Below, in pieces: positions 3,159 to 52,640 of a DNA stretch of 64,000 nt. The notes under the pieces are model-generated. The model made no database searches and was not told the DNA's origin. It saw only the letters and a program-made list of their open reading frames with translations. Made by a program: the position numbers and the translations under genes. Numbering within the stretch: position 1 is the first letter of the stretch; each line of letters begins with the position of its first letter. The DNA comes from a virus (Duplodnaviria > Caudoviricetes): IMG/VR virus record IMGVR_UViG_3300046167_000801; one strand, 5' to 3'.

Positions 3159-3673
3159 TCATACAATTATACCCCCTGATAATCATTTCCAGACCCCCTA
3201 AGAACGTCATACATACTTTGACCGTTAAGTGTCCATAAGTCATACAATAGTGTCTTAAAACGTACCTATTAGGGTACATTTTTGTCGTAGTAAGTTTTTT
3301 AGGTCTCACTACCCCTGTAAACGGTACTTTTCTTAGGTACGTATATATAGGACCTCGTTTTTCCCACTTTCTACCACTTTCCTACACACCGTAGGGTATT
3401 GTGTCGTGTGCGACTCAAAGACACTTTTTCTAAAAATTTATAAATATGATACTGTTATATCGGTCATACACTCCTGAACCCCGTATAATAGTTAAGTCAT
3501 TATACTATAATATGTCATACATTATACCCCCACAATATAAGTGTTATATCGTTATACTCGGATGAGATGTCATACACCCGTATAATGAAAAAATCATAAT
3601 ACAAATCGGGATACCCCCACGGGTATATAATATTATAAATTGTATGACATTATACCCTGACGGGTGTCATACA
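3158..3673. repeat. iteron-like GTCATACA octamer cluster in noncoding zone
   Basis: Copies at 3158, 3206, 3239, 3463, 3514, 3569, 3641 (reverse), 3666; companion ATTATACCC at ~3166, 3521, 3649. Confidence 0.8.
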
Positions 3674-3731
3674 TTTATAGTCTGTGCCAATTAGAATTGT
3701 CCCTGATCAGGACGGTGAAGGGTCGAAATGT

Positions 3732-4402
3732 TTATAACGGTTTTGATCCGAGAATAGGACCCGAGTTTATTTGTGGACGAATCTTATAAGGTTTCATAGA
3801 CAACGCAATTAATGTACCTTTTGTTTCATCGTCTGTCTCAAACTCAAATTCAATCTCTAACTGTGCAACCGAAGAAATCTTTGGGAGTAACGTAAGTTCA
3901 ATATTAATATCCTTAACGTCATACATACGAGTAAGACCTTAACAATCTTGTGATCTCTCTTAAGTTTTGTCATACACTCTTCCTTAGTGGGAAGGTTGAT
4001 GTTCTTAATAGAACTATTCACTATAGTATCTATGTCATTGGTTGGGTCTTCAATGTCTATGACTTGAGATCTACCTGAGGTATTCTTTATGAAGTCCCCC
4101 GTTCTGCCAATTACTATTGTGGATCCTCCTCCTCTGAGTTCATCTTTTATTATTAGATGATTCAGTGATACGAATTCTTGTCCACTCTGTAGGTGTTCAC
4201 TTTTAATTTGGGTAAGTGATTCTGTTAATACTGTTTGTAGTATATCCCCGAATTTTGAAGTTAGTGTGTCGAGGTCACGAATGGTTACATCGATGTCTAA
4301 TAATAGAATGTCGTTGTATCCATAATAATGTGCGGAATAGGTGTAACCTTCTTTCTCGACATCCGCAATATACTTACTCTCATGTAAATCTAATAGTTTC
4401 AT
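3732..4402 (-). pseudogene. hypothetical protein probably split by a 1-bp frameshift (ORFs 3857..4402 and 3732..3926)
   Basis: Overlapping co-directional ORFs; adding one base near 3932 joins IVKVL to RMYDVKDINIEL. Confidence 0.45.
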
Positions 4403-4517
4403 ATGTATAATAAATATTCGGTTATGCCAAATAAAATCTGAGATGGGACCTGATCTGAGACTCGAACGTTTGCCAATTAAAATCGGGACCGTCGGTGATC
4501 AGGAATCTTGACTCTAT

Positions 4518-4551
4518 AAAAAAAGGGTCTACCTTTCGGATGACCCTCTTT
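4518..4551. terminator. intrinsic terminator hairpin
   Basis: AAAAAAAGGGTC..GACCCTCTTT stem with A/T tracts downstream of minus-strand gene. Confidence 0.7.
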
Positions 4552-4588
4552 AAAAAAAAAATAAATCAGATATTAGACAAAACGTTAG

Positions 4589-4783
4589 TTATGCCGCCGA
4601 TTTCTGTTTTAGTAACTGGTTTCTGAATTTGATTGCCTTTGCTTTGTTAGTAAAGTACTCATCGTAAGCCGTCCCTTTAATAGAAACTCTTACTCTGTAT
4701 CTGTTTCCAGAACCATTAGTTACTTGGTAAATGTTATTACCGAGGTTTGTGTAGCTGTAGCTACCAGTAGTTGACTTTGCCAT
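4589..4783 (-). CDS. small AP2-like DNA-binding protein
   Basis: NIYQ...RYRVRVSIKG...YFTNKAKAIKFRN resembles the AP2/integrase-type three-strand-helix fold. Confidence 0.5.
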   Translation of the reverse strand: MAKSTTGSYSYTNLGNNIYQVTNGSGNRYRVRVSIKGTAYDEYFTNKAKAIKFRNQLLKQKSAA

Positions 4784-5304
4784 ATTACTATTATTTAAAT
4801 GTTTATTACACTAAAGTATACGTAATATTATTTGTAAAGTCAACCCCCCATTGTATAAGATGGTCATCCTACATGTGCCATGATGTCAAAGAACTTTTTT
4901 GAAACCATTTTATAACCGATAAAATGTAATGTATTGTTTGCCAATTAAAATTGACCTCCCTTCACGGGATTCGAGTGGAAAAAAAAGATTAGAAGAGTTT
5001 CAGTATGAAGTGGATTAATATTGTTGCCACCAATATCATAAAACTCCAACCAATCATTTTGTAGGAGGTCTCCATTCTTTGAGGGGATCTACCCTGATTA
5101 CTTCTATACTGTCTAAACTTCTTTTCTTTTTCCATAATTTGTTGTTTTATTATTTAACTTTACTTATTTCCAATTGTCTTTGGAAGAAGTACATTAACTT
5201 CTCTTCAGCTCGTTTCATCTGAACTTCATCTTTTACTTTGGCTGCTGTATCCCACCTTTCCATCCAATAGGATATCTTAGGGAGGAAACCGTTCTTATAC
5301 TTTT

Positions 5305-5502
5305 TCATTGATTCTGTTTTAATAAATCATTAACTTCATCGGAGGTTATATCACTCACGTCGTAGTACCCTGCGATTTCGGTGAGATCTATGTCATCACC
5401 CTTTATCTCAATACCTTCTTGTAAGGTGGTACCATCTAAATCAAATACTGCATTTCTAACTTCTACTGTGCCATAATCTTTAGTTTCTACGGTTCTATTC
5501 AT
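5305..5502 (-). CDS. hypothetical protein
   Basis: ORF in minus-strand cassette, overlapping start/stop with neighbours. Confidence 0.6.
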   Translation of the reverse strand: MNRTVETKDYGTVEVRNAVFDLDGTTLQEGIEIKGDDIDLTEIAGYYDVSDITSDEVNDLLKQNQ

Positions 5503-5959
5503 TGATCTTATTTCTTAAAAATGTTTCTAAATCTAACTTGTTAACGAAGAGAGTCTTGTTTTCTATATAGACGTTCCCTTCGAATCCATCTATATTATGA
5601 TCTGCTATACCTTCCGCTACTGTCCAATATGGTTTCACCCGAGGATTATAAGAGATCCTTATACAGTCCTGCCGATTAAAATTCGACAGGTCCTGAGATC
5701 CTGAAGGAAAAGATATCCATGAACATACTGTTTTGTTGGATCCTCCATGAATCTTATTGGCAGTCTTCTGACTGTTATTAAGTTTACCATCTCTGATCGT
5801 GTATTGGAATTCAGCGGGGGAGAAGTACTCAAGTATACCTTCCACTTTATTCCTTAGTTGCCAATTCATGTAGTTCTTACCCTTGGCCAAATGGAACCTT
5901 AACCTATTGTTCTTAGGTAAGGTATCCATAAATCTCCATTCTTTCTCTATATTAATCAT
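5495..5959 (-). CDS. hypothetical phage protein
   Basis: 154-aa ORF, translationally coupled. Confidence 0.65.
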   Translation of the reverse strand: MINIEKEWRFMDTLPKNNRLRFHLAKGKNYMNWQLRNKVEGILEYFSPAEFQYTIRDGKLNNSQKTANKIHGGSNKTVCSWISFPSGSQDLSNFNRQDCIRISYNPRVKPYWTVAEGIADHNIDGFEGNVYIENKTLFVNKLDLETFLRNKINE

Positions 5960-6530
5960 AGTACCCCTCCTCTAAAAGTTCTTGTTCTTTTTCTTCTTCA
6001 CTCTGAAGAAAGGTTACTCTAATCCCGTGAACCATATCGTCCATCTTAGAAACCTCTAACTTGTACATACCATCTCCATAACCTGTTGATGATACAACTC
6101 CTGATTCGTAGGTACCCCACTGTTCTTCTCTTAAGGTACGGTCACACATTTTAACATACCATCCCTCACCTGTTTCTTTAGTTGGTCTGAAGGGGTGATC
6201 ACCAAACGGATCTCCCTTATCAGTTAACCATGGTAGATCTTTTGCTACCTCATCATTACGGTAGGATGTCATACAACAGATACTCATCTGTCCACTGTCA
6301 ACAGCAACACTACCAATGTCTTCCCATATAGGACTCTTTATGATTTCATGTAATACAGTGAGTGATGCAATTCTATCACCCCAATCACCTTCATCAGATT
6401 TTACCACCTGTGTGTCATACATACCAGGTCGCATATTATTAATTTGATTGTTGAACCATCCATCTACGTCACTGTAACATGGATCTGACACAATTACCTT
6501 TTCTCCTAACTTAATTTGATTTCCTTTCAT
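5952..6530 (-). CDS. DUF4241-like protein
   Basis: VSDPCY ... VAVDSGQMSI ... SSTGYGDGMY motifs. Confidence 0.6.
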   Translation of the reverse strand: MKGNQIKLGEKVIVSDPCYSDVDGWFNNQINNMRPGMYDTQVVKSDEGDWGDRIASLTVLHEIIKSPIWEDIGSVAVDSGQMSICCMTSYRNDEVAKDLPWLTDKGDPFGDHPFRPTKETGEGWYVKMCDRTLREEQWGTYESGVVSSTGYGDGMYKLEVSKMDDMVHGIRVTFLQSEEEKEQELLEEGYYD

Positions 6531-6766
6531 GATATTCCTCTTTTTGATTACTATACAAATATACTAGTATTTTTTAGAATATCACAACAAATACTAGTTT
6601 AAGTTTGCCAATTAGAATTGGACCCGGCGGCTGTGATCACCATCCCTTCGGCCAATGATAATAGTGCGGAGTTACACCACCACCTCTATATTGGTCATGC
6701 TCTCTACGTTCCTCTATGGAAACTTTTTTGGGGGAATTGATTTTTACGAACCTCCCTTTAGAATCT

Positions 6767-7078
6767 CTACCGTACTTCATAATCCATTACTTTATAGTTA
6801 ACTTCTAATAATTGGTCTAACATGTATGACATTGTTTCTACATCGATACCATTCATATCGAATTCAACGTCATCACCAATATAGTTTCTACCCGTTATCA
6901 TACCTTCTTCAGATATGCCAACTACAATCCACTCCTCAGGTCCCTTCTGTGTTTCCACATCTACTTTGAACATTCGGTCGAACTCAATCTCCATACCTCT
7001 CAATTCATCTTGGATGTATGTGATTGTTTTCTTTATTAGATTTTCCTTGTACTGTTTTGTTAATGTAATATATGACAT
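6767..7078 (-). CDS. hypothetical protein
   Basis: 103-aa acidic ORF in cassette. Confidence 0.6.
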   Translation of the reverse strand: MSYITLTKQYKENLIKKTITYIQDELRGMEIEFDRMFKVDVETQKGPEEWIVVGISEEGMITGRNYIGDDVEFDMNGIDVETMSYMLDQLLEVNYKVMDYEVR

Positions 7079-7114
7079 AATAGTCAGTTTAAATTAATAT
7101 TACCTACCGTAGAA

Positions 7115-7594
7115 CTAAACGTTGTTCATTAATTTGGTAAGTTCGTTGCGGTTTTCTGCAATTTGTTTGTCCATCGCAACTTGTATGGACCTCTTGGCCG
7201 ATTCCATAAATTGGATATCTTTCTCGAGTAAGTTTAAATCATCACCATCTTCAGATATTCTTCCGACAATGACTCTCACATCTTTAGTACTTGTTCCTTT
7301 TCTAAAGAATGGGGATCTTGCATATATATAATCCCCTCGTACTATAGATAGTTTAATCTCTTTAATGTTTTCCTTAGCTCTTAGTTGAAGAATAGTTTCC
7401 TCAAGTAAGGATACAGTTTCGAACTGCGTCTTCCACTTAGTGACGATATTTTTGTAGGTCCCCGTCATCTTGGACAGTACAGGTGACATTTTGATTGGCC
7501 CATCATTCAAGAATCTCTCAAACTCACTAAGTTGTTTGTTGGTACCAACGATCTCCGTAAAGACCCCATTCACATGTTTTAAATTTCTATTCAT
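7115..7594 (-). CDS. hypothetical protein
   Basis: 159-aa ORF in cassette. Confidence 0.65.
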   Translation of the reverse strand: MNRNLKHVNGVFTEIVGTNKQLSEFERFLNDGPIKMSPVLSKMTGTYKNIVTKWKTQFETVSLLEETILQLRAKENIKEIKLSIVRGDYIYARSPFFRKGTSTKDVRVIVGRISEDGDDLNLLEKDIQFMESAKRSIQVAMDKQIAENRNELTKLMNNV

Positions 7595-7673
7595 TTTTTC
7601 ATTGTTTTATATTGTTAATATTACTATTCACTGCCAATTACTATTGCTGAGCTCACCCTTCACCTTTTTGAAG

Positions 7674-8303
7674 TTAAGCTGAGGTCGTAGCAAGTTCTTT
7701 TTTTAATTCATCTACACATTCCATTATTTCTGATTCCTTAAGGAAATGGTAATTATCTTTTATTACTTCTACTAAGTCTTCACTTTTGTCTCCGTGTTCA
7801 AAATCATCTACAATATATTCTAACCCACTATTAATGAATTCTCTGTCGAACCATTCATCAAACCCTTCAAATTGGTAGATACCTTCTTGGTAATCATAAT
7901 CCTCTTCGTGGACATTACCAGATTGTATTGTTGCCTTTCCACAGAAGTCTGCGCCAGGTTCTTCGTAATACATCTTTACACTAACGTCATACATTGTGGA
8001 TAGAATTCTCATTCCCTCAATAGGTGGTGACCAAGCTGACTCAGTGTTAAGTACCATTGAATCCTTATCTACCACAATGTCATCATACGATATGTCCCAC
8101 TTAGTTCCATACCTTTCTATGTTATGATTATACCATCCCCCATTTTCCAAGGATTCGGTAGTTTCTTTCTCGTCCACACCAATTAGTGATTCAAAGAAGT
8201 TATCTTTTTTCTTGTTACTTGCAGCATCTAACATTGCTGACATTCTTTTGATGACCTTAGGTTCACCAAGTATTTCGATATTGTTGTAACACCAGTTTGG
8301 CAT
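7674..8303 (-). CDS. Api92/YubB-like ferredoxin-fold (DUF1281-related) protein
   Basis: MPNWCYN start, YGTKWD, TESAWSPP, YYEEPG motifs. Confidence 0.7.
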   Translation of the reverse strand: MPNWCYNNIEILGEPKVIKRMSAMLDAASNKKKDNFFESLIGVDEKETTESLENGGWYNHNIERYGTKWDISYDDIVVDKDSMVLNTESAWSPPIEGMRILSTMYDVSVKMYYEEPGADFCGKATIQSGNVHEEDYDYQEGIYQFEGFDEWFDREFINSGLEYIVDDFEHGDKSEDLVEVIKDNYHFLKESEIMECVDELKKELATTSA

Positions 8304-8351
8304 AATGATTATAATTTAATAGTTGTACAAAGATATAACATTTATTTTATT

Positions 8352-8762
8352 TTACCACCAGGAGCTGTAATAAACATCATACCCCTTTCTAATTGCAGTT
8401 AGAGATTCCTCTACAAATTGTAGGTCTTCTTCTCTATATTCTTCAGATGAGTCATCCCCGAAAATGAATCCACAGGTTTCAGGTAATGAACCATCTTTAA
8501 TATCCTTCTCAAGGTTCTCCAAATCCTCCCAAGTTAATTGAACATTTACACAATTAAATTCAGGTGACTCACCACCCTTCTCATAATAGAGTTCCCTCAT
8601 CCACCCTTGGAGATGGGGATGTTTTCTCCAGTAATGGAGTTCCTTCTTATCACACAGTATCTCGGTCTCTTTAGTTTCCTCGTTATACTGTTCTGTGTTA
8701 AAATCTACTGGTTCTTTTATGAACCCTTTTTTTACTCGGTATGCAAATTGGTCTAATCCCAT
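8352..8762 (-). CDS. conserved phage hypothetical protein (MGLDQ...YWRKHPHLQGW family)
   Basis: Recognisable phage family motif, C-terminal YYSSWW. Confidence 0.7.
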   Translation of the reverse strand: MGLDQFAYRVKKGFIKEPVDFNTEQYNEETKETEILCDKKELHYWRKHPHLQGWMRELYYEKGGESPEFNCVNVQLTWEDLENLEKDIKDGSLPETCGFIFGDDSSEEYREEDLQFVEESLTAIRKGYDVYYSSWW

Positions 8763-8989
8763 TGTTTATTCTTTATTGATTACTATACAAATATAAGGAT
8801 TATTTTGTTATACCCAATTACAAACGGATAAATTTCTTTGCCAAATAGAATACGTACTGGTCCGGCGCTGTGGCAAAACTGGTTTACCTGGCAGATCACC
8901 TGGCGAGTCTCCAGGTCAATTCTATTTGGCACATGCCAATTAAAAACAAACAGGTGATCTGCATGCATAATAATTTCACAAGCAGGCAT

Positions 8990-9018
8990 AAAAAAACCCC
9001 ACCATTTCTGATAGGGTT
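8990..9018. terminator. intrinsic terminator (near-identical copies at 10293-10323 and 15021-15054)
   Basis: AAAAAACCCC(C)ACCATTTCTGAT(A/G)AGGGT in three cassettes. Confidence 0.7.
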
Positions 9019-9043
9019 CATGAACTTTCTTTTTAGGTTTTTC

Positions 9044-9571
9044 TTAAGTGTGCATATCCACATACACTATATACCTTTTATTCGTTGGGTCGTCATCTTC
9101 TAATTGAGAGCCATCTAAATGTGTAACTCCACATTCCCCTAACTCCCAATCATAGTAGTAGTCTTGTAATACATCAAACTCTCGACCCTCTTTTTCTAAA
9201 CGGACTTTAGACATTTCGATTTGAAACATATCCTCACAGTATTTCTTGGCACCATACCAATCGAAAGGACTTTTATGTTTACCCTCACTACATTTGGTAA
9301 AGTTATCTTTATAGTAGTCATCTACTTTCATCCACTCACGAACTTGCCGATTAATATCCTCGACGGTGGTCCCTTCCTTAGGACACCACCTCGAATTACC
9401 CCATTCTTTTTCTTTGTCATACGTGGAATACACTTCGTTATCCGCACTGACACATCCACCAATGGTTCTCCAATTATTTTCAGTTCCCCATTCTGAGATT
9501 TCCGTTTCAACGGTATCACATGCCTCTTCGGGGGAAGAGGCAGTTACGATACAAAAATGTAGATTATGCAT
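9044..9571 (-). CDS. hypothetical protein
   Basis: 175-aa ORF coupled to upstream gene. Confidence 0.65.
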   Translation of the reverse strand: MHNLHFCIVTASSPEEACDTVETEISEWGTENNWRTIGGCVSADNEVYSTYDKEKEWGNSRWCPKEGTTVEDINRQVREWMKVDDYYKDNFTKCSEGKHKSPFDWYGAKKYCEDMFQIEMSKVRLEKEGREFDVLQDYYYDWELGECGVTHLDGSQLEDDDPTNKRYIVYVDMHT

Positions 9572-10043
9572 ATTTTTCTTTTTTCATTTTACAACCTTCC
9601 TCACCAAACAACTCTACTTTGAGTGCTTGTCGTTCTTCATTCCAATCGGAATGGTTACTACGTTTCCAATCGTCATAAAAGTTTTGTTTCCACCAACTAT
9701 CATCACATAGAGCTCTAATCACATCAAAAGATATGTCGGTAAAGTTTTCTTCACAGTAGGAATATAAATTCTCCTTACTGTTTTTCTTGGGTACGAATTT
9801 ACCCTCATCAGCATAATCTCCTGTAATTACAATGTTATCACCGGCCCAAGAACCAACGATTGGGTTTTCACTTCTCAAATCTCCACCCCCACGATTATTT
9901 CCGTCTGCCAATAAGATACCCAAACCTTGCATGACAGACATTCCGTCTGATGTAAATTCCATTAACTTTGCACCACTCCCAAAAGCGTGAGGGGTTAGTG
10001 TCTGTCCTTTTGTAGTGTTTACTACTTTAAAATACTGTCCCAT
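9564..10043 (-). CDS. conserved phage hypothetical protein (MGQYF family)
   Basis: MGQYFKVVN...GSWAGDNIVITGDYAD motif, promoter upstream. Confidence 0.65.
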   Translation of the reverse strand: MGQYFKVVNTTKGQTLTPHAFGSGAKLMEFTSDGMSVMQGLGILLADGNNRGGGDLRSENPIVGSWAGDNIVITGDYADEGKFVPKKNSKENLYSYCEENFTDISFDVIRALCDDSWWKQNFYDDWKRSNHSDWNEERQALKVELFGEEGCKMKKEKYA

Positions 10044-10395
10044 AATTAAAATGTTTAAATGTTATTAAATGATTACACTACAAATATAATAATATAAACG
10101 TTATCTACAAAACATTATGAGGTTTTTTATTTGCCAATTAAATTAAGGGATTAAACTGTGCAGTTACAGTGCACACATTTTACAGTTAATCGGAGAAATA
10201 TGCATGGATCCTGAACCCGGCCCGAATTTTAGTTGGCACGTGCCAAATAGAATTTACAGTGCATGATAACTATAGTCTACATTTTGTGCATTAAAAAACC
10301 CCCACCATTTCTGATGAGGGTCTTCGTAGTAATCACTTGTAACATATCATGAAATTACAAGACTACAAATGTAATACAATTATATTACATTATAC

Positions 10396-10590
10396 CTATA
10401 AGGTTACGTCGATTGATGCGTTGAAGTTGTTTTGTAATACATCGGGAGAGATGACTCTATTAATGGTGTTTGCAATTTTCTCGTACTCTGCGGGAGTAAC
10501 ACTCAAACCTTTAATGTGAATCTTTCCATCTAATACTCTAAACTTAACTCTAATTTTTTTCTTACTCATTTTTAATAACTGACTGAACAT
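10396..10590 (-). CDS. hypothetical protein (start probably MSKKK at ~10569)
   Basis: Short ORF in operon. Confidence 0.5.
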   Translation of the reverse strand: MFSQLLKMSKKKIRVKFRVLDGKIHIKGLSVTPAEYEKIANTINRVISPDVLQNNFNASIDVTL

Positions 10591-10759
10591 ATTCTAATTT
10601 GTTTATGGTGTCGACGTGTTGGGAACCCCTAAACCGATTTTGGGACTGAATGATGTTGACTATTACACCACCCGTTGGTGTATACCCCTCGGCAACATGA
10701 CCATTCACTTTTTCTGTTAGTCCTTGTGGACTTGAACTACTTAATACTTTATATTCCAT
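10562..10759 (-). CDS. small DUF1737-like protein
   Basis: MEYKVLSS....L...VN..VAEGYTPTGGV pattern. Confidence 0.5.
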   Translation of the reverse strand: MEYKVLSSSSPQGLTEKVNGHVAEGYTPTGGVIVNIIQSQNRFRGSQHVDTINKLEYVQSVIKNE

Positions 10760-10770
10760 GATATTGAATT

Positions 10771-10986
10771 TTATAAATAAAACTTATTCCATTGAGTATG
10801 AGCTTCATTCTCATATCTCCTTTCCTTGTCTACATTAACAAGAGTCTCTGTCTTCCTACATGTAGGACAAGCTTCAACTTCTTGTAGTTGTTTATCTTGA
10901 GGGTTGTGCCGATTACTTTCCAAGATGGTGATCACCTCCTCCGAAGTTCCTTCCCACATACAATTATAACATTCGTACTTATCCAT
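10771..10986 (-). CDS. small zinc-ribbon protein
   Basis: CYNC ... CPTC pairs. Confidence 0.55.
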   Translation of the reverse strand: MDKYECYNCMWEGTSEEVITILESNRHNPQDKQLQEVEACPTCRKTETLVNVDKERRYENEAHTQWNKFYL

Positions 10987-10988
10987 AA

Positions 10989-11261
10989 TTAAAATGTTAC
11001 TTTAGTTGATACCTCATTAACAATAGAATAGGATGACTTATTGATAGTCTCTTTTATTCTATTAGTAAATTCTTCTTTCGTTTCTTCCTCGTGAAGTTTG
11101 TCAATAGGTAAGGTGATACCTAAGTTGGATACTGCAAATGAAGTCCCACTCGAAGAGTGTCCTCCATACAATGAATACCTAATTGAACCTTCTGTTAACC
11201 TACAAACTAATGTTTTAGGGTTTCCGTAGACATCTTTAAGATGTAAATGTGATAATTTCAT
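10989..11261 (-). CDS. hypothetical protein
   Basis: 90-aa ORF downstream of promoter. Confidence 0.55.
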   Translation of the reverse strand: MKLSHLHLKDVYGNPKTLVCRLTEGSIRYSLYGGHSSSGTSFAVSNLGITLPIDKLHEEETKEEFTNRIKETINKSSYSIVNEVSTKVTF

Positions 11262-11435
11262 GATTACTTGTTTTATGATTACATTGTAAAGATACGAAAA
11301 TTATTGTATAAAACAAATACTTTTATACAAAAAACTAAATAAATTCCCGATTCTGGGTATCCCAGGAATGATTTTATTTGGCAGAGAGTGCCGATTAAAA
11401 TGTGAGATGGACGGTGAACCTTCGGGTGTAGACAT

Positions 11436-11463
11436 AAAAAAACCCCTTACATTGTAGGGGGTT
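11436..11463. terminator. intrinsic terminator (near-copy at 15812-15840)
   Basis: AAAAAAACCCCT(T)ACA(T/A)TGTAGGGGGT hairpin. Confidence 0.7.
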
Positions 11464-11488
11464 AGTTAAATTAAAAATAAAAGTTCTA

Positions 11489-11734
11489 CTATTCGTGTAT
11501 CTTATCTATTACACTTCTAAACTCATTCAACCTATCATTGTATTCCCAATAACATGTTCTTGGAAATTCAATTTTGTATTTCTTCTCGAACTTTGGTATG
11601 GTGGGATGTTTATAGTTACCTGAAAATATATGAGCGAATACTTCCACCATTTCGTCAGTCCATAATATTGTTTTTTTTTCCGTATTGAAAGTTGACACAT
11701 CCGGCGCCAATACCTTCTGATTATTTTTTATCAT
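11489..11734 (-). CDS. hypothetical protein, mosaic (N-terminus like 15860..16324, remainder paralogous to 11997..12314)
   Basis: VL.P.VSTFNT shared with 15860 ORF; WTDEMVEVF and FEKKYK shared with 11997 ORF. Confidence 0.6.
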   Translation of the reverse strand: MIKNNQKVLAPDVSTFNTEKKTILWTDEMVEVFAHIFSGNYKHPTIPKFEKKYKIEFPRTCYWEYNDRLNEFRSVIDKIHE

Positions 11735-11996
11735 ACTCTAAAGATAAAACAATTATATTATTATACCAAATAAACCTTTGCCAAATAAAATACGGATACG
11801 TCTTCAGGATCACCAACAGTTCATCCTGATCTGAACCGTGGCCCGGGTAACATTCTATTTGGCGTTGTAATATACATGCCAACTAAAATCGGGGCGACAA
11901 GGTTGTCGACTTCACCTTCACATATAAAAAAACCCCCACTAACTAAAGTGAGGGTATTTGTTAATTTACCAAATTAACAACCAAACAAAACACAAA

Positions 11997-12314
11997 TTAT
12001 ACTTCTACCATATTACTAAAATCTCTACGTATATCTATGGGAACTTCAAAAGTTCTATCATCCTTTTTCCATATCTCAACTTCCCCACAATATTTTTCTT
12101 CTAAGAATTCTAAACCTAAGGAATTTCTTTCTCTATACATCTTACGTATTACATACTTAAAGTTCCCCATTTTTTCGTTCATCTTCTTACCCACAAAGTC
12201 GTCATAGTTAAATTTAACTTTGTATTTCTTTTCAAACTCTCGTACACATCCTGCACTAAAGTTACTTGAATATACTTGAGTGAATACTTCCACCATTTCA
12301 TCAGTCCATTCCAT
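11997..12314 (-). CDS. hypothetical protein
   Basis: MEWTDEMVEVF paralog. Confidence 0.6.
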   Translation of the reverse strand: MEWTDEMVEVFTQVYSSNFSAGCVREFEKKYKVKFNYDDFVGKKMNEKMGNFKYVIRKMYRERNSLGLEFLEEKYCGEVEIWKKDDRTFEVPIDIRRDFSNMVEV

Positions 12315-12316
12315 AA

Positions 12317-12550
12317 TTAATCAGTTACATAAATTACATCCGACGTTTTTTCATCTTGGTAGTACATCGACCCACCATCGTTACCCTCATCATCTGACTG
12401 AGGAATCAAGATTGTCCCATCAGTAAATTTTATTACTACGGGTCTCTTATACCACATAAGGTTTTCCATATCCTTATCTCCCAACCAAGTTACTTCCTTG
12501 ATTGTTTTACCTTTAAGGTACTTGTTGAATTGTTTTAAATGTTTATCCAT
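12317..12550 (-). CDS. hypothetical protein
   Basis: LKGKTIKEV...DDEGNDGG phage-type small protein. Confidence 0.6.
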   Translation of the reverse strand: MDKHLKQFNKYLKGKTIKEVTWLGDKDMENLMWYKRPVVIKFTDGTILIPQSDDEGNDGGSMYYQDEKTSDVIYVTD

Positions 12551-12555
12551 GACTT

Positions 12556-12798
12556 TTAGTTTATATCATTAGTGTTACACAATATTACATTTCCGACGAT
12601 TGGGTGTCCACACATACCCGTAGCTTCGTGATTTAAAGGTAGTCTATGTATTAGACCTTCTTCATTCACGATTAAAACTCTACCTTCGTTTATGTGAACT
12701 AACTCTATAAGTCCACCGACTAACTCTTGTTTTCTTTTAAGAGTGTCAATGTTTACGTTTACTTCTCGTGTTCCATCCGTTTTTAATAATGTTGCCAT
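12556..12798 (-). CDS. DUF3846 family protein
   Basis: QELVGGLIELV...LIVNEEG..LPLN.EAT....IVGNVIL. Confidence 0.75.
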   Translation of the reverse strand: MATLLKTDGTREVNVNIDTLKRKQELVGGLIELVHINEGRVLIVNEEGLIHRLPLNHEATGMCGHPIVGNVILCNTNDIN

Positions 12799-13260
12799 CT
12801 GACTAATGATTTATGATTACTATACAAAGATATAAAAATTATCTTATTATACAAATTTATTTACTTTCTTTTCTGCCATTTAAAATTTGGGATCTCTTCA
12901 GGATCTCCTCTTTGAATTCTTCTACCATACATTCTTCATCTATAACAATCCTATCTTCCTCATCAAAGAAATAGTAGATTGGAATTGTGATGGGTTTGTA
13001 TTCCGTTTGTTTATTAGTTGTTTCTTCCATAATACAAATATAACAATATAATGTGTATCAACCAAACATTAATAGGTTTTTCTTTCTCCCCCGACGTCTG
13101 TGTGGCCCGGGTAACATTCTATTCGGCATTGTAATACACATGCCAATTAAAATTGCCCAGTTTGTGCTGTCCAAATCCCAATATATTTTATTGTTTTGTC
13201 AACCTCATCGCATAAAAAAACCCCTACTAAAAGTAGAGGTTATTTGTGTGGTGTATTACA

Positions 13261-13485
13261 TTATCTATAAAGAGTCACATAATCTCCGAATTCACTATCG
13301 AAATAATTAACTAAGTTGTCATAGTCTCCCGATGTCATACGTTTGATGTTACTTTCAACATCTTCTTTAGTGTGTCCTAATTGTTTCCACAATTTCTTAG
13401 CTGTGCCGATTAAATAAAACGCATTTCCCTGTGGTCCCGTTAAATCGATTACGATTCCGTTTTGTTTTGGTTTATCTACTATCAT
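13261..13485 (-). CDS. conserved phage hypothetical protein
   Basis: IDLTGPQGNAFYLIG...MTSGDYDNL motif. Confidence 0.65.
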   Translation of the reverse strand: MIVDKPKQNGIVIDLTGPQGNAFYLIGTAKKLWKQLGHTKEDVESNIKRMTSGDYDNLVNYFDSEFGDYVTLYR

Positions 13486-13799
13486 TATCTTTTATTTAAA
13501 TTATCTAATTTAATCCAACCTTCCTTTATTCCTTTTCTACATTCCGCTACACCGAATCCTAAGAATTCATTTCTGTATTTACTTGTAGTCCTTGAATAAT
13601 CCCAATAGTTCTCATCAAAAACATATTGAGGTCTTTTAACACCTTGGATGTCATATCTCTTGTCTGTCTTGTAACAAATCTTTGTACCATACGAAACGAA
13701 CATCGATCCGTTATCATCTGATAAAATTTGTTGATTTGCGAGAGGGTTTCCACCTCTTGATTGCATCGGCTCTAACGATACGAATTTCATTATTCTCAT
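13485..13799 (-). CDS. conserved phage hypothetical protein
   Basis: FVSYGTKI...WDYSRTTSKYRNEFLG motif. Confidence 0.65.
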   Translation of the reverse strand: MRIMKFVSLEPMQSRGGNPLANQQILSDDNGSMFVSYGTKICYKTDKRYDIQGVKRPQYVFDENYWDYSRTTSKYRNEFLGFGVAECRKGIKEGWIKLDNLNKR

Positions 13800-13915
13800 G
13801 ATTACTGTTTTTATTGATTACTAATACTCAAATATAACACTTTTTTTATTATAACCAACATAAAAAGATAACTTTGTTTGCCGATTAAAATACGGGATGG
13901 GCCCTGAACCTTCCG

Positions 13916-14137
13916 TTACAAAATCTGTTCTTGAAGTTCCTTTACCAAATCTTTAACTTGGGATTGTGTAAGTTGTACGTGTGCGAACATACGATTATGG
14001 TCTACATCGGGGTCGATATTCATTTGAACCATAATACCATTCTCCCCACCACTAAAACGAGTTAATTTGATTTCACTTTCCTTATTACCAAATTCGGTTT
14101 CTTTCCGACACTTGATTGATTTCAATTCTGTTGACAT
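13916..14137 (-). CDS. hypothetical protein
   Basis: 73-aa ORF with own promoter. Confidence 0.55.
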   Translation of the reverse strand: MSTELKSIKCRKETEFGNKESEIKLTRFSGGENGIMVQMNIDPDVDHNRMFAHVQLTQSQVKDLVKELQEQIL

Positions 14138-14553
14138 AATTTCTATTGTTTAGATTATAAAGATATAACAAATAATTGGTTATACCAAATCTAAGATTGC
14201 CAAATAGAATTAATTTATACCATCCGGGTGTTTTTGCCAGGTAAACCAGTTTTGCCACAGCGCTGGACCAGCAGGTGATTTTAATTGGCGAGATCGATAG
14301 GCAAAAGAAAAGGGGTTACTTACCACGGTAACCCCCTTTTTACTTTCACATTTAAGTTGTAAACCAACCATATCTTGTTTAACAACATGACAAATATATT
14401 AAACAAACACGTATTCAACAAGTTAAAGATTGTTATTTTAATGTTAATAGAGGTGCCAATTAAAATTACCTCCAGTGCTGTGCAACTTCATTACACACCT
14501 GGCATAAAAAAAACCCCTACGTTAATAAGGGTTTTTGGTTAGTGTGTGAAAGT

Positions 14554-14835
14554 TCAAGGGGGTGAAGTCAAACTATATCTGTTTAAGTGGTAAAGTTCAA
14601 AATCGATAAACCCAAGTTTATCTACGATATACTGACCTACACAATTGGTTTCTTGTAATACATTTTCGTAGGACTTACCTAATGTACGTTTACAAAATTT
14701 CTTTAAGTTCCGAATTACAAATCGGTGGGGTACGTTTCCGTTATCCTTAATGGTTAATACCCATTTGTCGGATGTTTTAGTTAAATAACCTTTCATGATA
14801 TAAAGTTTTATGATTACCCTACTAATGTAATACAA
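14554..14835 (-). CDS. hypothetical protein (start probably MKGYL at ~14796)
   Basis: Short ORF between terminator and promoter. Confidence 0.5.
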   Translation of the reverse strand: MYYISRVIIKLYIMKGYLTKTSDKWVLTIKDNGNVPHRFVIRNLKKFCKRTLGKSYENVLQETNCVGQYIVDKLGFIDFELYHLNRYSLTSPP

Positions 14836-15070
14836 TATTTCGATATAACCAAATTAATATAATATTTATTTTGTTGAGTCGGAGTGACGGTGGTGATCAA
14901 GAAATTTTATTTGGCAATGTAAAACGAACTGAAGGTTCGTACGTCCTTGCGTTTCTATTTGGCAGATGCCAATTAAAATACGATTCACCATGTGTATTCT
15001 TCTTGGAAAAAAGTTAGACAAAAAAAAACCCCCACCATTTCTGATGAGGGTTTCTTCGACTAAAACAAAA

Positions 15071-15556
15071 TTAAACTACTTCATATCTAACTCCTTTGTA
15101 AGAAATCTTTTTGATGTTGTCCGTTCTCATTGTGAAAACTTGTACCTCTCTCTCGTTGTAGGTTGGTAAGAAAGGTTGGATAACTTGTTTTTCAATAGTT
15201 TCTCCGTTGTGAATGTACTCGTTACGGATTGACTGATTTTCAAAAGTTTCATACATAAAGTATGTGTTGTCGTTGTTTCGGTGTTTAACTACACAAGGAC
15301 TGATGTGTTCAAACCAATTTGGTTTACTCTCAAACTCTTGATTGTTAGTTTTTTTCTTCATACGATTTTCGTAATCGGGTAAACAACGAACATTTTTACT
15401 TGACTTTTTTACTACTGAATTGTAGTAGGGGTTGTTTGTCTTTTTCATTTTTACATTTGTAACACTCTCGATGTTTACAAATTCCCCTTTTTCGACTTGT
15501 TGTAAGATATTGACTAAAGTATCTTTGTCAATTCTTTGTGGTGTTTGATTTTTCAT
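15071..15556 (-). CDS. hypothetical protein
   Basis: 161-aa ORF with own promoter and terminator. Confidence 0.65.
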   Translation of the reverse strand: MKNQTPQRIDKDTLVNILQQVEKGEFVNIESVTNVKMKKTNNPYYNSVVKKSSKNVRCLPDYENRMKKKTNNQEFESKPNWFEHISPCVVKHRNNDNTYFMYETFENQSIRNEYIHNGETIEKQVIQPFLPTYNEREVQVFTMRTDNIKKISYKGVRYEVV

Positions 15557-15859
15557 ATCCGATGAAATTTAAATGATTAATAATACTCAAATATAATACT
15601 ATTACTATTATAAACCAAACATTTAGTAAAAAACTTTGAACTTTGTTTGCCGATTAAAATGTGGGATACGTCACACGGGACACGAACTTTTTTCTAATGT
15701 TCCAAATTTTTCATCAACTTTTTTTGGATACGGGTGATCCAGTTCCTATTCTAATTGGCGAGTGCCAAACAAAATGTTACATGGGCCCTGATGGAGGTTG
15801 AGTGTGGATATAAAAAAACCCCTACAATGTAGGGGGTGTTAAATTAAAAAAAATAAAGT

Positions 15860-16324
15860 TTACAAGTTCAGTGACTGAAGATGTTTTAGTCTCGCGTTGT
15901 ATTCATCCTCATCGTAATAATCTTCATCATCATCATCATCATCCTCGATCATCATTTCTAAACCACTAATTACTTCTTTACCCTTTTCATTGATTATGGT
16001 AAATCTATAAGATGGCCCATCCAAATCGGGGGAAGCATGATGAAAAGTAACTTGAATCAGATTATTCTCACACACTAAAGTGAAATAAGTTCTACAATCA
16101 TCATTAATAAAATCTTGTATAGAATTAATTTCTCCCATGATTTTATCACAAATAGAGTCCCAGTCTTTAGACCAATCTAATTCTGATGATTCTGTTCCCT
16201 CAAAATAGTCAATTTCCAAATCTTCAAAATCTCCTTGATTGAAACCAGCGTTAAACTCCGTTTTTGTTTTCGTATTGAAAGTTGACACACCGGGTGTCAA
16301 TACTCTCGGTTTATTGATATACAT
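15860..16324 (-). CDS. acidic hypothetical protein
   Basis: D/E-rich C-terminus; leader shared with 11489 ORF. Confidence 0.6.
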   Translation of the reverse strand: MYINKPRVLTPGVSTFNTKTKTEFNAGFNQGDFEDLEIDYFEGTESSELDWSKDWDSICDKIMGEINSIQDFINDDCRTYFTLVCENNLIQVTFHHASPDLDGPSYRFTIINEKGKEVISGLEMMIEDDDDDDEDYYDEDEYNARLKHLQSLNL

Positions 16325-16702
16325 ACCCTAAAGATAAAACAATTATATCATTATACCAAATAAACTTTTGCCAAATAGAATACCAAATCCTGAGATGGTA
16401 ACTTCGACTCTATACCTCAAGAGGAAGGTTATGTTACGACGTGCACCTTCAAACATTTTAATTGGCGAGATCTTGCCAAATAGAATAACCGAAGACTTTC
16501 CCGCGGGAGGAAGGGTTAGTGCATAAAAAAACCCTAACTAATTAAAGTGAGGGTTGTTGTTCTTGATTAGTGTTTCTTTATATATCCCAAATGATACCTA
16601 CTGAAAACCTAATTACAAAATAAGAGAAAGATAAAATAATGATTCCATATTGTAGACGTTCTCCATTTTTACTATCTAACCATTTAAAAAACTTTTCCAT
16701 AA

Positions 16703-16882
16703 TTAAAGTTTTATAAAGTTAGACCTTAACTTATTGATGTTCTTCATAATGAAACTATGAACTCCCATTACAATAACATAACTGACAACTGAAACGAAAC
16801 CGATTAAACAAGTTGCCCAAAAACCGAACAACAATGTCATTCCTACATCCATTCCACTAATAACGTTTAATAAATTTTCCAT
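16703..16882 (-). CDS. small membrane protein (59 aa, below ORF-track cutoff)
   Basis: Translated by hand: MENLLNVISGMDVGMTLLFGFWATCLIGFVSVVSYVIVMGVHSF..., promoter at 16926. Confidence 0.5.
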   Translation of the reverse strand: MENLLNVISGMDVGMTLLFGFWATCLIGFVSVVSYVIVMGVHSFIMKNINKLRSNFIKL

Positions 16883-17198
16883 GATACTTTTTTTTTGTTT
16901 TGTTTATTACTAATTGATTACATAACAAATATAATAATAATTCTATTATATACAATACTTTATTACAAGTTTGTTTGCCAATTAAATTAAGGGATTAAAC
17001 TGTGCAGTTACAGTGCACACATTCAGCAGTTTCTTTGAGCGCTAGATGAGCGCAACAGCAGGTGGATTTTAATTGGCGGGATCGTGCCAAATAGATTAAG
17101 GGAGGATGCATGTAAACTTCGGGGGGAATTATTACAAAACAAAAAACCCCACCTCAATTAAGAGATAGGGTTTATCCATTGTTATCAGTAATCAACAA

Positions 17199-18023
17199 CT
17201 AAACACGAATGAATATCTTCTTGTCGTTTCGACGTTTATAATTATAGATATCCTCAATCATTCTAACATAATCAGATTGATTACCACAAATCTTGAAATA
17301 GTGGGGAATGATTTCAGATTTCTTTATGAACTCATTTGTATTAAACTCATTCTCATACTTGTTTAACACACTTAACATACTACGTACAAAAATAGTACGT
17401 GAATATCCTTCGGGGAAAAACTTTTGTAGTGAAGTTATAAACTCTCCCCATTGTACCGCTTTACTATAACTACTTATCTTGAATTGACCATTGTTGAATT
17501 GGTCTTTACGAGTGTTAGTAAAAGTACCATTGGTTAAAAGGAACATACTATCAGTTAAACTAAAATGGGGGAATACCTCCATATATTGTTTCAACTTAAT
17601 ATAGTTACGATTACCTTTAGATACATAGAACTCCAAGAAATCTCTACGTGACCAAGAGGCTGAATTGGTATTAGACCTAATTACCTCTTTTTCTCCATAG
17701 TTGTTTACTTGAAGATAGTAAATACCTTTACCACTCATCTTACTCGCGTGGTATCGGTGTTGTCCGTCAATAATTTCCATTTTCTTATTGACTACGATAG
17801 GATTTACAAGAAGTCCCTCATTGGACATACTCTCATAAATTTTCTTAACTCGACTCATATTAACTGGTCGGTTGTTTTCCATTAACTTGAACATATCCAA
17901 GTTAGTTGTGTACTTGACAGTCATGTCACTTTTCGGTTTCATTGTTCTACTCGACATAATAAAGTTGTTCGGTATTATCTCCCCGTCCTCGGTTTTAGTT
18001 ATTGATTGAGTACAAACATACAA
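17199..18023 (-). CDS. ParB/Srx N-terminal-domain protein
   Basis: NRPVN...V..I..SM...GLL.NPIVVN...EIIDGQHR.HA motif. Confidence 0.75.
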   Translation of the reverse strand: MYVCTQSITKTEDGEIIPNNFIMSSRTMKPKSDMTVKYTTNLDMFKLMENNRPVNMSRVKKIYESMSNEGLLVNPIVVNKKMEIIDGQHRYHASKMSGKGIYYLQVNNYGEKEVIRSNTNSASWSRRDFLEFYVSKGNRNYIKLKQYMEVFPHFSLTDSMFLLTNGTFTNTRKDQFNNGQFKISSYSKAVQWGEFITSLQKFFPEGYSRTIFVRSMLSVLNKYENEFNTNEFIKKSEIIPHYFKICGNQSDYVRMIEDIYNYKRRNDKKIFIRV

Positions 18024-18205
18024 ATACTTTTTTTAATATCCAAATATAATTGTAAATACTTTTTATTATTCCGCCAAATAGATTTTAAAATGAAGAGATC
18101 CTCAAGTAGAAGTTATGATCAGGATCCTGAGGTGAATCAAACTTTAGTTGGCACCACACCCTATGATCACAGACGACGGTGGGACCTGTTGTATTTTATT
18201 TGGCA

Positions 18206-18360
18206 CCCTCCCCACTATATAGGGGTATGGGGGGACCCCCCTGCAGTACCCCCTCCGGTATCCCCCCTTTAAAAAGGGGTTTTTCGGTGTCTGTACAGGG
18301 GGCTCAATGCCCCGTCCCGGATTTTTCCGGAATTTTTTGGAAAATTCGGTTTTTTTTTCG
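18206..18360. other. GC-rich homopolymer/palindrome zone at strand switch
   Basis: GGGGGGACCCCCC, CCCCCC/GGGG runs, CCGGATTTTTCCGG, followed by long T and A tracts. Confidence 0.6.
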
Positions 18361-18379: not shown

Positions 18380-19507
18380 ATGTATAAAAATACAAAAATT
18401 CATAGAATAGATCACGAAAAAATAATAGAACGTTATAAAGAACTTGGAAGTGCAAAAAAGACCGCGTTGGAATTCGGTTTATCAGGACCGACAGTTTTAA
18501 AAATTATTAGATTACATGGTGTTGAGGTTAACCGTGAATTTAAAAAATATAGTGATGAATATGTTATATCCAAATATTACGAATTTGGAACTGCGGAGAA
18601 AACGGGTATTGAGTTGGGAATGGGGGACCAAAGGCTACGTGACATATTGGACAGAAATAACATCAAGAGAAAAACAATAAAACACGTATCAGTCGGAGAT
18701 GTGTTCAATAAGTTAACTGTGATAGAATTTGTGGGTTATCGTGGTACGAAAAATAAACATAGGGTATTCTTATGTAAATGTGAGTGTGGGGGTACAAGAA
18801 AGGTTGACACTCGTAAATTAACTACTTCACAAAAACCCATAAAAGACTGTGGATGTGGGTGGAAATTAAAAAGAGAAAGGGCGGAGTTAAAACGTAAGGA
18901 AAAAGAACGAGCAAGACAACTACGGTTAGAAAAACGTATCGAACGTGAATTAAAAAATAAACTCAAACGTAAAAAATACGAATCCAATAAAAAATATAAA
19001 GTAGGGTCTAAACATAATAGATTAACCATTATATCTGTAGTTGGTAAAGGTGAAAATAAGGTTCTTACTGTGGAGTGTGAATGTGGGACAATTAAAGATA
19101 TTAAAAAACATTCAATTTATACCACAAAATCTTGTGGGTGTCTCCAAAAAGAAAGATCTACAACCCATGGTATGGTATCTAAAGATAGAAAGAAATATGA
19201 TAGGTGGAGATCAATGATTAGCAGATGTCATAATCCAAAATCTAAATCATATCATAACTATGGGGGTCGTGGAATATATGTGTGTGATAGATGGAGATTA
19301 CCAAATGGTGAGGGATGTAGAAACTATTTAAGGGACATTAAAAAACATTTAGGACCCAAACCCGAAGGTAATTATTCTTTAGATCGTATAGATAATGATG
19401 GTCCTTATGAGATTACTAACTTGAGGTGGGCAGATGCGTCAACTCAAACGAAAAACCAAAGAAGATTTGCAAAGGTTGATAAAGACCAATGTAAAATAGA
19501 TTTTTAG
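18380..19507 (+). CDS. HNH homing endonuclease with repeated N-terminal DNA-binding modules
   Basis: Two LT.I....CxCECG...SCGC modules; WRSMISRC.NP...Y..YGGRGI.VC.RW ... LDRIDNDG.Y...NLRWA. Confidence 0.85.
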   Translation: MYKNTKIHRIDHEKIIERYKELGSAKKTALEFGLSGPTVLKIIRLHGVEVNREFKKYSDEYVISKYYEFGTAEKTGIELGMGDQRLRDILDRNNIKRKTIKHVSVGDVFNKLTVIEFVGYRGTKNKHRVFLCKCECGGTRKVDTRKLTTSQKPIKDCGCGWKLKRERAELKRKEKERARQLRLEKRIERELKNKLKRKKYESNKKYKVGSKHNRLTIISVVGKGENKVLTVECECGTIKDIKKHSIYTTKSCGCLQKERSTTHGMVSKDRKKYDRWRSMISRCHNPKSKSYHNYGGRGIYVCDRWRLPNGEGCRNYLRDIKKHLGPKPEGNYSLDRIDNDGPYEITNLRWADASTQTKNQRRFAKVDKDQCKIDF

Positions 19508-20588: not shown

Positions 20589-21623
20589 ATGAAGAAAATT
20601 AAACTTACCGAATCACAGGTAGCAAAACTTTTAAACGAGGATTCTTTTAAATCCATTAAAAATATATTTTGGCATTCAAGAAATTCACTTAAATCAGGTA
20701 ACGGTACTCTTGATAGAAACACAATAAGAAGTATCGCTAACAATTTATATGATGCAATGAAAGGTGCGGGTACTGATAATGATGCTATTACTGATAATCT
20801 TGAAAAATGTAAAAACTTACACGATTTTAAAAATGTGAGATATAAGTTCTACAAAATGTATAACGAAAAGTTACTTACTTGGTTAGATGGTGATATTGAT
20901 GGTGACGGTGAGTGGACTACAACAGTACTAAGACCACTACAACGTATTTATGATGTATCTAAAGCTGCGGGACATTTCAATCCACCTAAAAAAGTTAAAA
21001 CAAGTGAACTTGAAAAAGAAATAATGAAAACATTAGGATGTTTAAAAGATACACCTGGATATGAGTTCCAAAAAGACTCTTCTGATGGAAAAGGTATTTT
21101 CTTTAAATCAACTGAAGGTGAATTCTTCCTCTTTAAAGATGGAACGTTAGCTAAAAAGAAAGAGAATAGTAGGAAATACGATTATTTTAAAAATAAAACA
21201 GAGTGTACGGATTCGAAGTACATCTCAACCATTAATCAAAGGGATGGTGAGGTTACAGAAACTGATTCCCTTATGGAAAAGTCAGGTTTAAACTTAAACC
21301 CTGATGGGGTAGTCGGTTCTAAAACTGAACCAGAAGTAAAGTCAACAAGTACTACTAATAATACAACCACTACAGGAGATACAAAAACTAAATCAACCGT
21401 TGCAACAGCGGTAACTGCAAATGCGGGTGGATCCGTATCGGATTTCCAACAAAAACTGAAAGATGCAGGGTTTGGTAATAGTTTAGGTGCTGTAGATGGA
21501 AAATTAGGACCAAAGACAGCGAGAGCGGCTATGGAATTCATTAAATCAAAAGGTTTATTATCTGAAACTGATGAGTTACCACTAAATGAACAAATAAGTC
21601 AAAACTTTAAAAGATTTCTATAA
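20589..21623 (+). CDS. putative virion/ejection protein with annexin-like repeat and C-terminal peptidoglycan-binding domain
   Basis: LYDAMKGAGTDNDAI...F...Y...L...LDGD; FQQKL...GF...VDGKLGPKTARA. Confidence 0.65.
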   Translation: MKKIKLTESQVAKLLNEDSFKSIKNIFWHSRNSLKSGNGTLDRNTIRSIANNLYDAMKGAGTDNDAITDNLEKCKNLHDFKNVRYKFYKMYNEKLLTWLDGDIDGDGEWTTTVLRPLQRIYDVSKAAGHFNPPKKVKTSELEKEIMKTLGCLKDTPGYEFQKDSSDGKGIFFKSTEGEFFLFKDGTLAKKKENSRKYDYFKNKTECTDSKYISTINQRDGEVTETDSLMEKSGLNLNPDGVVGSKTEPEVKSTSTTNNTTTTGDTKTKSTVATAVTANAGGSVSDFQQKLKDAGFGNSLGAVDGKLGPKTARAAMEFIKSKGLLSETDELPLNEQISQNFKRFL

Positions 21624-52234: not shown

Positions 52235-52257
52235 TGAGGATCCCTTTTCACACTTAG

Positions 52258-52640
52258 TGGAGGTGGAGGGTTTCGAACCCTCGTCTTGCTCGTCCCAACC
52301 ATAGAGGACTACACGTTTAGGTCAATATCGATTCTCAATATTCCGAAATATGTGATTGAATTTTTACATCCTCCATCACCAATAGATGTACGACTCGATT
52401 TAAGGTTCAGTCGTTTTTCTACCTTTGTAAGACTTCTGTTCCTAGGTTATATGTCCCGACCCGTTGTAGAGATAACCTTAGGCTACCGCTACTTTAGAAT
52501 CAACAGATACAAGACCCATTAATCCCATTTGTGAATAAACGTCTCCGTCTAAAAAACATCTCCATAGATTTAAGTGATAGGAAATATCTCACTACGTGCC
52601 CTGTTATAATTGACTACGCCAATCAATTCCAGTCACCCCC
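52258..52640 (-). ncRNA. ssrA: tmRNA
   Basis: 5' GGGGGTGACTGGAATTGATT pairs with 3' CACCTCC-A including G3.U70; T-arm GAGGGTTCGAAACCCTC; internal ORF ending GTAGCGGTAGCC TAA. Confidence 0.9.

Follow-up and report, generated by a model that had tools for sequence, protein, structure and literature searches.

Inverted intergenic spacers and repeated 13-mer boxes in an early-type gene array of an uncultured marine jumbo phage

Promoter-early stem-loops (PeSLs) of T4-type phages are repeated intergenic modules that combine a stem-loop terminator with an early promoter of host type, and they are concentrated in a hyperplastic block of small ORFan genes (PMC2839356; PMC4122927). Where close relatives differ by insertions, deletions or replacements, the end points lie in these motifs, and recombination between neighbouring motifs drops single cassettes (PMC2839356; PMC4122927). 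Circular excision products (mini-circles) are a further feature of the type. Here we describe a PeSL-like array of small genes on a 64,000-nucleotide (nt) stretch of phage DNA (IMG/VR record IMGVR_UViG_3300046167_000801, hereafter the window) and, within it, two intergenic sites at which one 67-nt spacer stands in opposite orientations between inverted 13-nt arms. It is probable, though not beyond reasonable dispute, that one 93-bp box-spacer-box module of a shuffling array gave rise to both spacers as inverted paralogous copies, the flip having been installed once by general recombination and the copies having been homogenised afterwards.

As in PeSLs, a composite promoter/terminator motif is predicted at nearly every intergenic region, the block of ~30 small genes is hyperplastic, and end points of insertions and deletions lie in repeated motifs (boxes in contig L064 and in a contig of sequencing run X3; a terminator in a sister lineage). 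New relative to PeSLs are the layout of the box, a 13-mer present in up to three copies in forward, inverted and forward orientation around spacers (PeSLs are without such a box), the GC-rich nature of these spacers, the Bacteroidota-type promoters (TTTG / TAnnTTTG, compared with sigma-70 type promoters in PeSLs) and the inverted, apparently converting spacer pair. To our knowledge, no inverted paralogous spacer pair with gene conversion has been described for PeSLs.

The intergenic frame and the inverted spacer pair

All genes of the array are on the minus strand, most are without a Pfam or PHROG family, and nearly every intergenic region has a predicted promoter and a predicted intrinsic terminator.

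3685–18205, minus strand: early-type cassette array, 14.5 kb, ~30 small genes, ~45 box copies

Both sites have arms that are copies of one 13-mer box. The box reads ATTYTAWTTGGCA in gene direction and is not private to the two sites. The box is a sharply bounded 13-mer with flanks that are not conserved. It occurs ~45 times in 3685–18205 and nowhere else in the window; exact matches all fall inside the array (26/26), and at up to three mismatches 82 matches were found compared with 33 expected. In an IMG/VR relative the exact boxes are likewise confined to the corresponding array (23/23), the remaining 61 kb having none. The box was not found in the ParB-like relatives in IMG/VR (L003–L038).

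Read in gene direction, the intergenic frame consists of a terminator, a GC-rich tail ending in box1, 2–12 nt, an inverted box2, a GC-rich spacer of 44–130 nt, box3, a promoter and the start codon. The inner spacing of the box palindromes is 2, 2, 2, 2, 5, 6, 6, 12 and 12 nt. From the end of box3 to the −7 element the distance is 32, 41–43 or 51–52 nt in 17/21 cases from two phages, the classes being ~10 bp apart. The features of the two sites are as follows.

8839–8851, plus strand: left arm of site 1, the promoter-proximal box3, which reads ATTCTATTTGGCA in gene direction
8852–8918, no strand assigned: spacer of site 1, 67 nt, of which 8852–8893 is a 42-nt block common with site 2
8894–8918, no strand assigned: second half of the site 1 spacer, shared only with site 2 variants of other lineages
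8919–8931, minus strand: right arm of site 1, box2, inverted with respect to gene direction
8934–8946, plus strand: box1 of site 1, forming a box-NN-box palindrome with box2
8784–8813, minus strand: predicted promoter region of gene 8352–8762, TTTG / TAnnTTTG type, with the −7 motif starting 43 nt after box3
8990–9018, minus strand: predicted intrinsic terminator of gene 9044–9571, a stem followed in gene direction by GGGG and a T-run
14198–14210, plus strand: left arm of site 2, the promoter-proximal box3; the −7 motif of gene 13916–14137 starts 32 nt after it
14211–14277, no strand assigned: spacer of site 2, 67 nt, reverse complement of the site 1 spacer; 14235–14276 is well kept and 14211–14234 decayed in this lineage
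14278–14290, minus strand: right arm of site 2, box2, with the CGCC variant typical of box2 positions

The pair was first noticed in a sequence-only reading of the window. That reading gave a 36/37 match between 8857–8893 and the reverse complement of 14235–14271, a length of exactly 67 nt for both spacers (8852–8918 and 14211–14277) and a shared block 5 nt from the arm at one site and 6 nt from the other arm at the second site, and we confirmed each of these observations. A repeat search widened the match to 8852–8893 and the reverse complement of 14235–14276 (42 nt, 93%). Aligned locally, site 1 and the reverse complement of site 2 match from arm to arm and no further (8840–8931 with 14289–14198), while BLAST returns a 94-nt inverted match at ~80%. 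The inverted copies are 5.3 kb apart, and their match cannot be attributed to chance. The arms are perfect inverted repeats over 13 nt at site 1 and match at 10/13 positions at site 2.

Within the window, the other 25 nt of the two spacers are no more alike than random pairs of tails (score 5, reached or exceeded by 61% of pairs). Natural variants were collected by exact-protein look-ups in many independent metagenomes. The set comprised five loci at the gene below site 1 and ten at the gene below site 2, together with ten long haplotypes at ≥99% identity and eight sister-lineage haplotypes at ~85–94%. With these, the full spacer is homologous. When site 1 is taken on the strand opposite the genes and site 2 in gene direction, six elements can be aligned along all 93 nt, and identity per column averages 87%. 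This homology spans the 93-nt arm-spacer-arm module from end to end, stops at the arms and includes no flanking gene. The spacer half that seems unrelated within the window is a decayed form of the same sequence, and the full-spacer homology of the population variants overturned a reading in which only one tail+box unit, not the whole spacer, would be shared.

Sites 1 and 2 share one frame in two lineages. Outside the arms, box1, the promoters and the genes point the same way at both sites; what is reverse-complemented is the filling between box2 and box3 alone, so the geometry proposed from the window alone, one spacer flipped between inverted arms, is correct. An ordinary inverted segmental duplication, which the same reading had named as the finding that would speak against it, is excluded, since the 67-nt spacer is inverted within the same frame, the homology ends at the arms and the co-oriented flanking genes are not involved.

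The equal length of the two elements, their intergenic location, their opposite orientations and the restriction of homology to arms and core would also fit a miniature inverted-repeat transposable element (MITE) with 13-bp terminal inverted repeats and a 67-nt core that inserted twice. The sequence-only reading had raised a miniature mobile element, and here it does not stand. Site 1 has no target-site duplication; the 4-nt repeat at site 2 is lineage-specific, and other lineages have box1 at that place. The core is shared by only two copies, while more than 10 other arm pairs of the array enclose unrelated spacers of 44–130 nt within the same three-box frame, and single arms and arms standing as box1 are found as well. 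Neither the arm-spacer-arm pattern nor the block's 29-nt core had a match in IMG/VR, and the block had none in Joint Genome Institute (JGI) metagenome contigs. In the relative, the position orthologous to site 1 is not empty; a box pair stands there, around a different spacer that is half homologous. Searches of the window and of the relative's 78 kb gave no transposase. A MITE is in our estimate quite improbable.

Two side observations concern site 2. In the lineage of the window, box1 of this site and its tail are deleted (14296–14345), and other lineages retain ~70 nt there. A perfect hairpin, GGGGTTACC...GGTAACCCC, with A-runs and T-runs on its flanks lies just upstream and resembles a bidirectional terminator.

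Exchange between the copies and their fixed orientation

Comparison of the aligned elements by segments revealed that similarity does not follow site. In columns 56–82, site 1 of the sister lineage agrees with site 2 of contig L047 at 25/27 positions but with its ortholog in the window at 20/27. Site 1 of the window, over this stretch, agrees with site 2 of the sister lineage at 21/26 but with the window's own site 2 at 13/27. The relation is reversed in columns 14–55, where site 1 of the window matches site 2 of the window at 36/42 and its own ortholog at 29/41. The left arm is identical (13/13) between site 1 of the sister lineage and site 2 of L055. The similarity is reticulate and not partitioned by site, as gene conversion between the inverted copies would make it, and such exchange of patches has taken place more than once. 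The 5.3 kb of genes between the copies are not inverted. At the position orthologous to site 1, the IMG/VR relative has kept one spacer half and carries a different other half; the two half-spacers therefore have separate histories. Directly upstream of site 1, haplotype L066 of the sister lineage has an extra partial module at 12848–12908 (a box, a truncated inverted box, a 24-nt piece of this same spacer and a box), which looks like a local partial duplication of the element.

The following sequence of events would account for the pair. Because box2 and box3 are inverted repeats of each other, a donor module could pair with a recipient in direct or in inverted alignment, and a spacer could land flipped. 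General recombination or repair of the phage, acting on the short repeated regulatory motifs of the array as in T4-type PeSLs, would have put one spacer in flipped once, and gene conversion since then would have homogenised the pair patchwise. The outermost base of an arm depends on where in the frame the arm stands (CGCC for most box2 copies, GGCA for box3), which is consistent with crossovers inside the arms.

Alternatively, a direct duplication could have been followed by a local flip, with the spacer inverted in place by intramolecular recombination or by template switching between the arms. The unchanged frame outside the arms, with the outer arm base following it, is compatible with such an event, and the perfect inverted repeats of site 1 can form a 13-bp stem in single-stranded DNA (centroid structures). 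However, the direct-orientation module was seen in no variant or relative at either site, folding is weak, with z from −2.2 to +0.8, and two events are needed compared with one for exchange in inverted alignment, which the reticulate patches already suggest. Small hairpin-associated inversions in chloroplast intergenic regions likewise concern a short segment between short inverted repeats that occurs in both orientations. In those cases close relatives differ by a flip at a single orthologous site; here the two orientations occupy different sites, and each is fixed. We consider a local flip unlikely, though it comes first among the alternatives.

Orientation was followed through the natural variants. 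Only the orientation of the window was found at site 1 in ~20 and at site 2 in ~24 distinct contigs of two lineages. Contigs of four runs from four studies cross both sites unbroken, have no strand-change joint and show no difference within either spacer. The suggestion that the arms serve as inversion sites is not borne out by these contigs, in which no orientation polymorphism is seen.

These data bear directly on an active invertible switch, that is, phase variation by a site-specific invertase with an orientation-dependent signal in the spacer. Inverted arms around a short segment just upstream of a promoter are what such a switch would have. Against it stand the single orientation per site in every assembly (two lineages, at least 19 studies), the contigs running unbroken through both sites and the failure to find an invertase in the DNA searched; an embedded orientation signal is disfavoured because the spacer diverges quickly. 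Of all readings the switch is the least likely, and we think it very improbable. The box-NN-box palindromes and the inverted repeats beside a promoter do recall the hix and gix sites and the invertible promoters of Bacteroides. Here, in contrast to serine-invertase sites, no invertase gene was found, the inner spacing varies from 2 to 12 nt and there is no orientation polymorphism. We conclude that the inverted pair is an old rearrangement kept alike by gene conversion, and neither a working switch nor a jumping element.

Recombination at repeated motifs and the role of the box

Two natural deletions have their joints inside boxes in direct orientation.

11389–11401, plus strand: box at the deletion junction of L064, paired with 11779–11791
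11779–11791, plus strand: partner box of the L064 deletion; run X19 has a loose end at 11779
15763–15775, plus strand: box at the deletion junction of run X3, paired with 16369–16381
16369–16381, plus strand: partner box of the X3 deletion; run X9 has a related loose end at 16377

Contig L064 is without 377 nt, including an 81-aa gene (11489–11734), and its joint lies within the 13-nt overlap of the boxes (L064 6664–6676). In the contig of run X3 the joint 15770→16377 is inside the boxes, and the 606-nt deletion removed a 154-aa gene (15860–16324). The same 81-aa cassette is present or absent in the sister lineage, where the joint is in a shared terminator T-run and not in a box. Such a joint speaks for general recombination between repeated intergenic motifs of any kind and not for an enzyme specific to the box. 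The proposal that the arms are recombination sites holds for the two deletions joined in direct boxes and for the exchange of patches.

Other traces of reshuffling were found. Cassette order is shuffled with respect to the IMG/VR relative, and the ParB-like gene is relocated. Several homology blocks between lineages begin or end exactly at a box edge; this is weak evidence, since boxes are conserved islands beside fast-evolving spacers. Tail+box units are common to several sites in direct orientation (10132/16976, 11852/13116, 11389/13879) and also occur inverted (16369 with an element of the relative; 15648; 18141). One such unit is present twice in near-identical direct copies, 10132–10176 and 16976–17020. 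Logan contigs of all four runs break at shared units (10150/10159, 11372–11401, 11786–11815, 16377–16406 and 16994–17003). Joints 6072→16111 and 8703→17820 were set aside as probable repeat or foreign joins (sides of 21–22 nt), and gaps in L059, L062, L063 and L065 were rejected as cassette losses, being N runs from scaffolding.

A dedicated process, in which an enzyme would cut and join at the 13-mers and cassettes or spacers would be exchanged either way round, integron-like without a tyrosine integrase, has several of these observations in its favour. Two independent deletions join in boxes that share ~11/13 nt and have no flanking homology, many homology blocks between lineages start or stop at a box edge, and units are found in both orientations. 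In addition, the 13+2+13 nt box-NN-box palindromes have the geometry of serine-invertase crossover sites, hix and gix sites being 12+2+12 bp. If such a system is real, its activity would have left direct traces in the inverted pair and in the patchwise homogenisation of the two copies. However, the inner spacing of the palindromes is variable (2–12 nt), one cassette joint is in a terminator, and block ends at boxes also arise from conserved boxes beside fast-evolving spacers. All genes keep one orientation despite boxes in both, so box-to-box inversion of cassettes either does not happen or does not survive.

The searches did not supply an enzyme either. The check for a recombinase that had been proposed for the genome gave no tyrosine, serine or Y1 recombinase among the 60 window open reading frames of at least 110 aa or in the relative's 78 kb, and the tyrosine integrase profile PF00589 had no match in the window or the relative. 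Taken together, we find dedicated box-specific recombination unlikely, and place it after the local flip.

Comparison with known repeat families leads to likenesses and differences alike. Like integron attC arrays and clusters of attC sites lacking integrases (CALIN), the array has small co-oriented cassettes and imperfect inverted-repeat elements with variable centres. It is nevertheless not an integron: no integrase was found in the DNA searched, the box does not fit the R''/R' cores (RYYYAAC / GTTRRRY), each cassette has its own predicted promoter and terminator where integron cassettes are promoterless, and one joint is in a terminator. The short alternating repeats with variable linkers, in mosaic combinations between a terminator and the next gene, resemble bacterial interspersed mosaic elements (BIMEs) and REPINs, the hairpin-forming pairs of repetitive extragenic palindromic (REP) units. 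REP units, however, are GC-rich palindromes mobilised by RAYT, a Y1 transposase; the box is AT-rich and non-palindromic, and Y1 was not found. Folds of eight elements as single-stranded DNA were mostly no better than those of shuffled sequences (z −3.3 to +0.8), and only the pairing of arm with arm was consistent. A structured RNA or an attC-like fold was dropped as a candidate, the folds being weak and the elements lying between a terminator and the next promoter. At gathering thresholds, Rfam models match nothing in the array; elsewhere in the window they match tRNAs and the transfer-messenger RNA (tmRNA).

The box itself is most likely an operator-like site linked to the early promoters, with its use as a recombination handle a by-product. 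This putative role would explain why the box is bounded, array-specific, conserved between phages with differing spacers, paired in palindromes and placed at ~10-bp steps from the promoter. A candidate binder is encoded by the first gene of the array. The early proteins also include a small AP2-like product (4589–4783).

17199–18023, minus strand: ParB-like nuclease/partition-family protein, first array gene; weak ParB_N in the sister lineage

The GC-rich tails beside the boxes (3600–18300) have 47% GC compared with 34% for the window. GATC is over-represented in them (20 seen compared with 4.9 expected by length), as are TGATCA, GATCAC and words of the TCAGGATC type, and a perfect TCAGGATCCTGA palindrome lies near 18120. 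This pattern suggests a second binding or methylation motif.

Several points weigh against the reading preferred here, that of inverted paralogous copies installed by general recombination and then homogenised. The founding event of the inverted copy and its mechanism are what we infer. Contigs lose rare variants, and a flipped form present at a few percent or less would escape. The recombinase searches covered ~64 kb and the relative's 78 kb of a genome of roughly 300 kb. The mapped joints have only 6–7 nt of perfect identity, and 13 bp is very short for recombination of the RecA/UvsX type, which leaves room for a dedicated or stimulated process at the boxes. As regards the operator, the promoter modules are paralogous and the box-to-promoter spacing is partly inherited, so the phasing argument is weaker than the raw counts; the operator role stands for a putative protein-binding site only.

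Phage context and significance

The region is also present on a 302-kb metagenome contig (JGI 3300046170, Ga0494229_00327), and the CheckV completeness of the relative's 78-kb contig is 25%; the phage is therefore an uncultured marine jumbo phage of roughly 300 kb. It was found in at least 20 seawater runs of 19 studies, at ~97% of sampled words. No T4 core gene was found within the window, and a blastn search of 8000–15500 against GenBank phages gave no match. Phage records matched by an FtsH-like protein were uninformative as to which phage this is.

A phage protein encoded at 58459–59196 combines a cohesin domain with a C-terminal sorting domain of type IX secretion (Por_Secre_tail), which hints at export through the type IX secretion system (T9SS) of the host. 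Given this sorting domain and the TTTG / TAnnTTTG promoters, of a kind assigned to Bacteroidota, the host is probably a member of the Bacteroidota.

At the head of the array lies a gene absent from the sister lineage.

18380–19507, plus strand: HNH homing-endonuclease-like gene, 375 aa, at the array head; absent from the sister lineage

In its place the sister lineage has an 84-aa gene (L066 2905–3159), to which some haplotypes add a 145-aa gene. This difference looks like an insertion polymorphism of a homing endonuclease. Since the sister lineage is without it, the HNH gene is a mobile passenger and not part of the machinery of the array.

The window as a whole encodes HNH and T5orf172 endonucleases, a ParB-like nuclease, endolysin-like and tail-lysozyme proteins and sugar-modifying enzymes, together with a tmRNA gene and four tRNA genes (52255–52640 and 53999–54805). 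Further predicted products are a 124-aa DNA-binding protein with the C-terminal helix-turn-helix domain of DnaA (46456–46827; E = 5e-16), a large ClpB/AAA-type ATPase (62064–63839; phrog_4871, 'ATP-dependent protease') and a protein in which an annexin-like repeat precedes a peptidoglycan-binding domain (20589–21623).

The tempting readings of the pair as a phase-variable switch or as a MITE are removed by this analysis. A defined 13-mer, two natural deletion joints and a marked inverted pair provide material that can be tracked by PCR or deep sequencing. The array shows, at nucleotide resolution and in wild populations, the reshuffling of the non-coding joints between early accessory genes of a giant phage, in which regulatory motifs present in both orientations let pieces be exchanged either way round. 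It extends the PeSL idea past T4-type coliphages to an uncultured phage of, probably, marine Bacteroidota.

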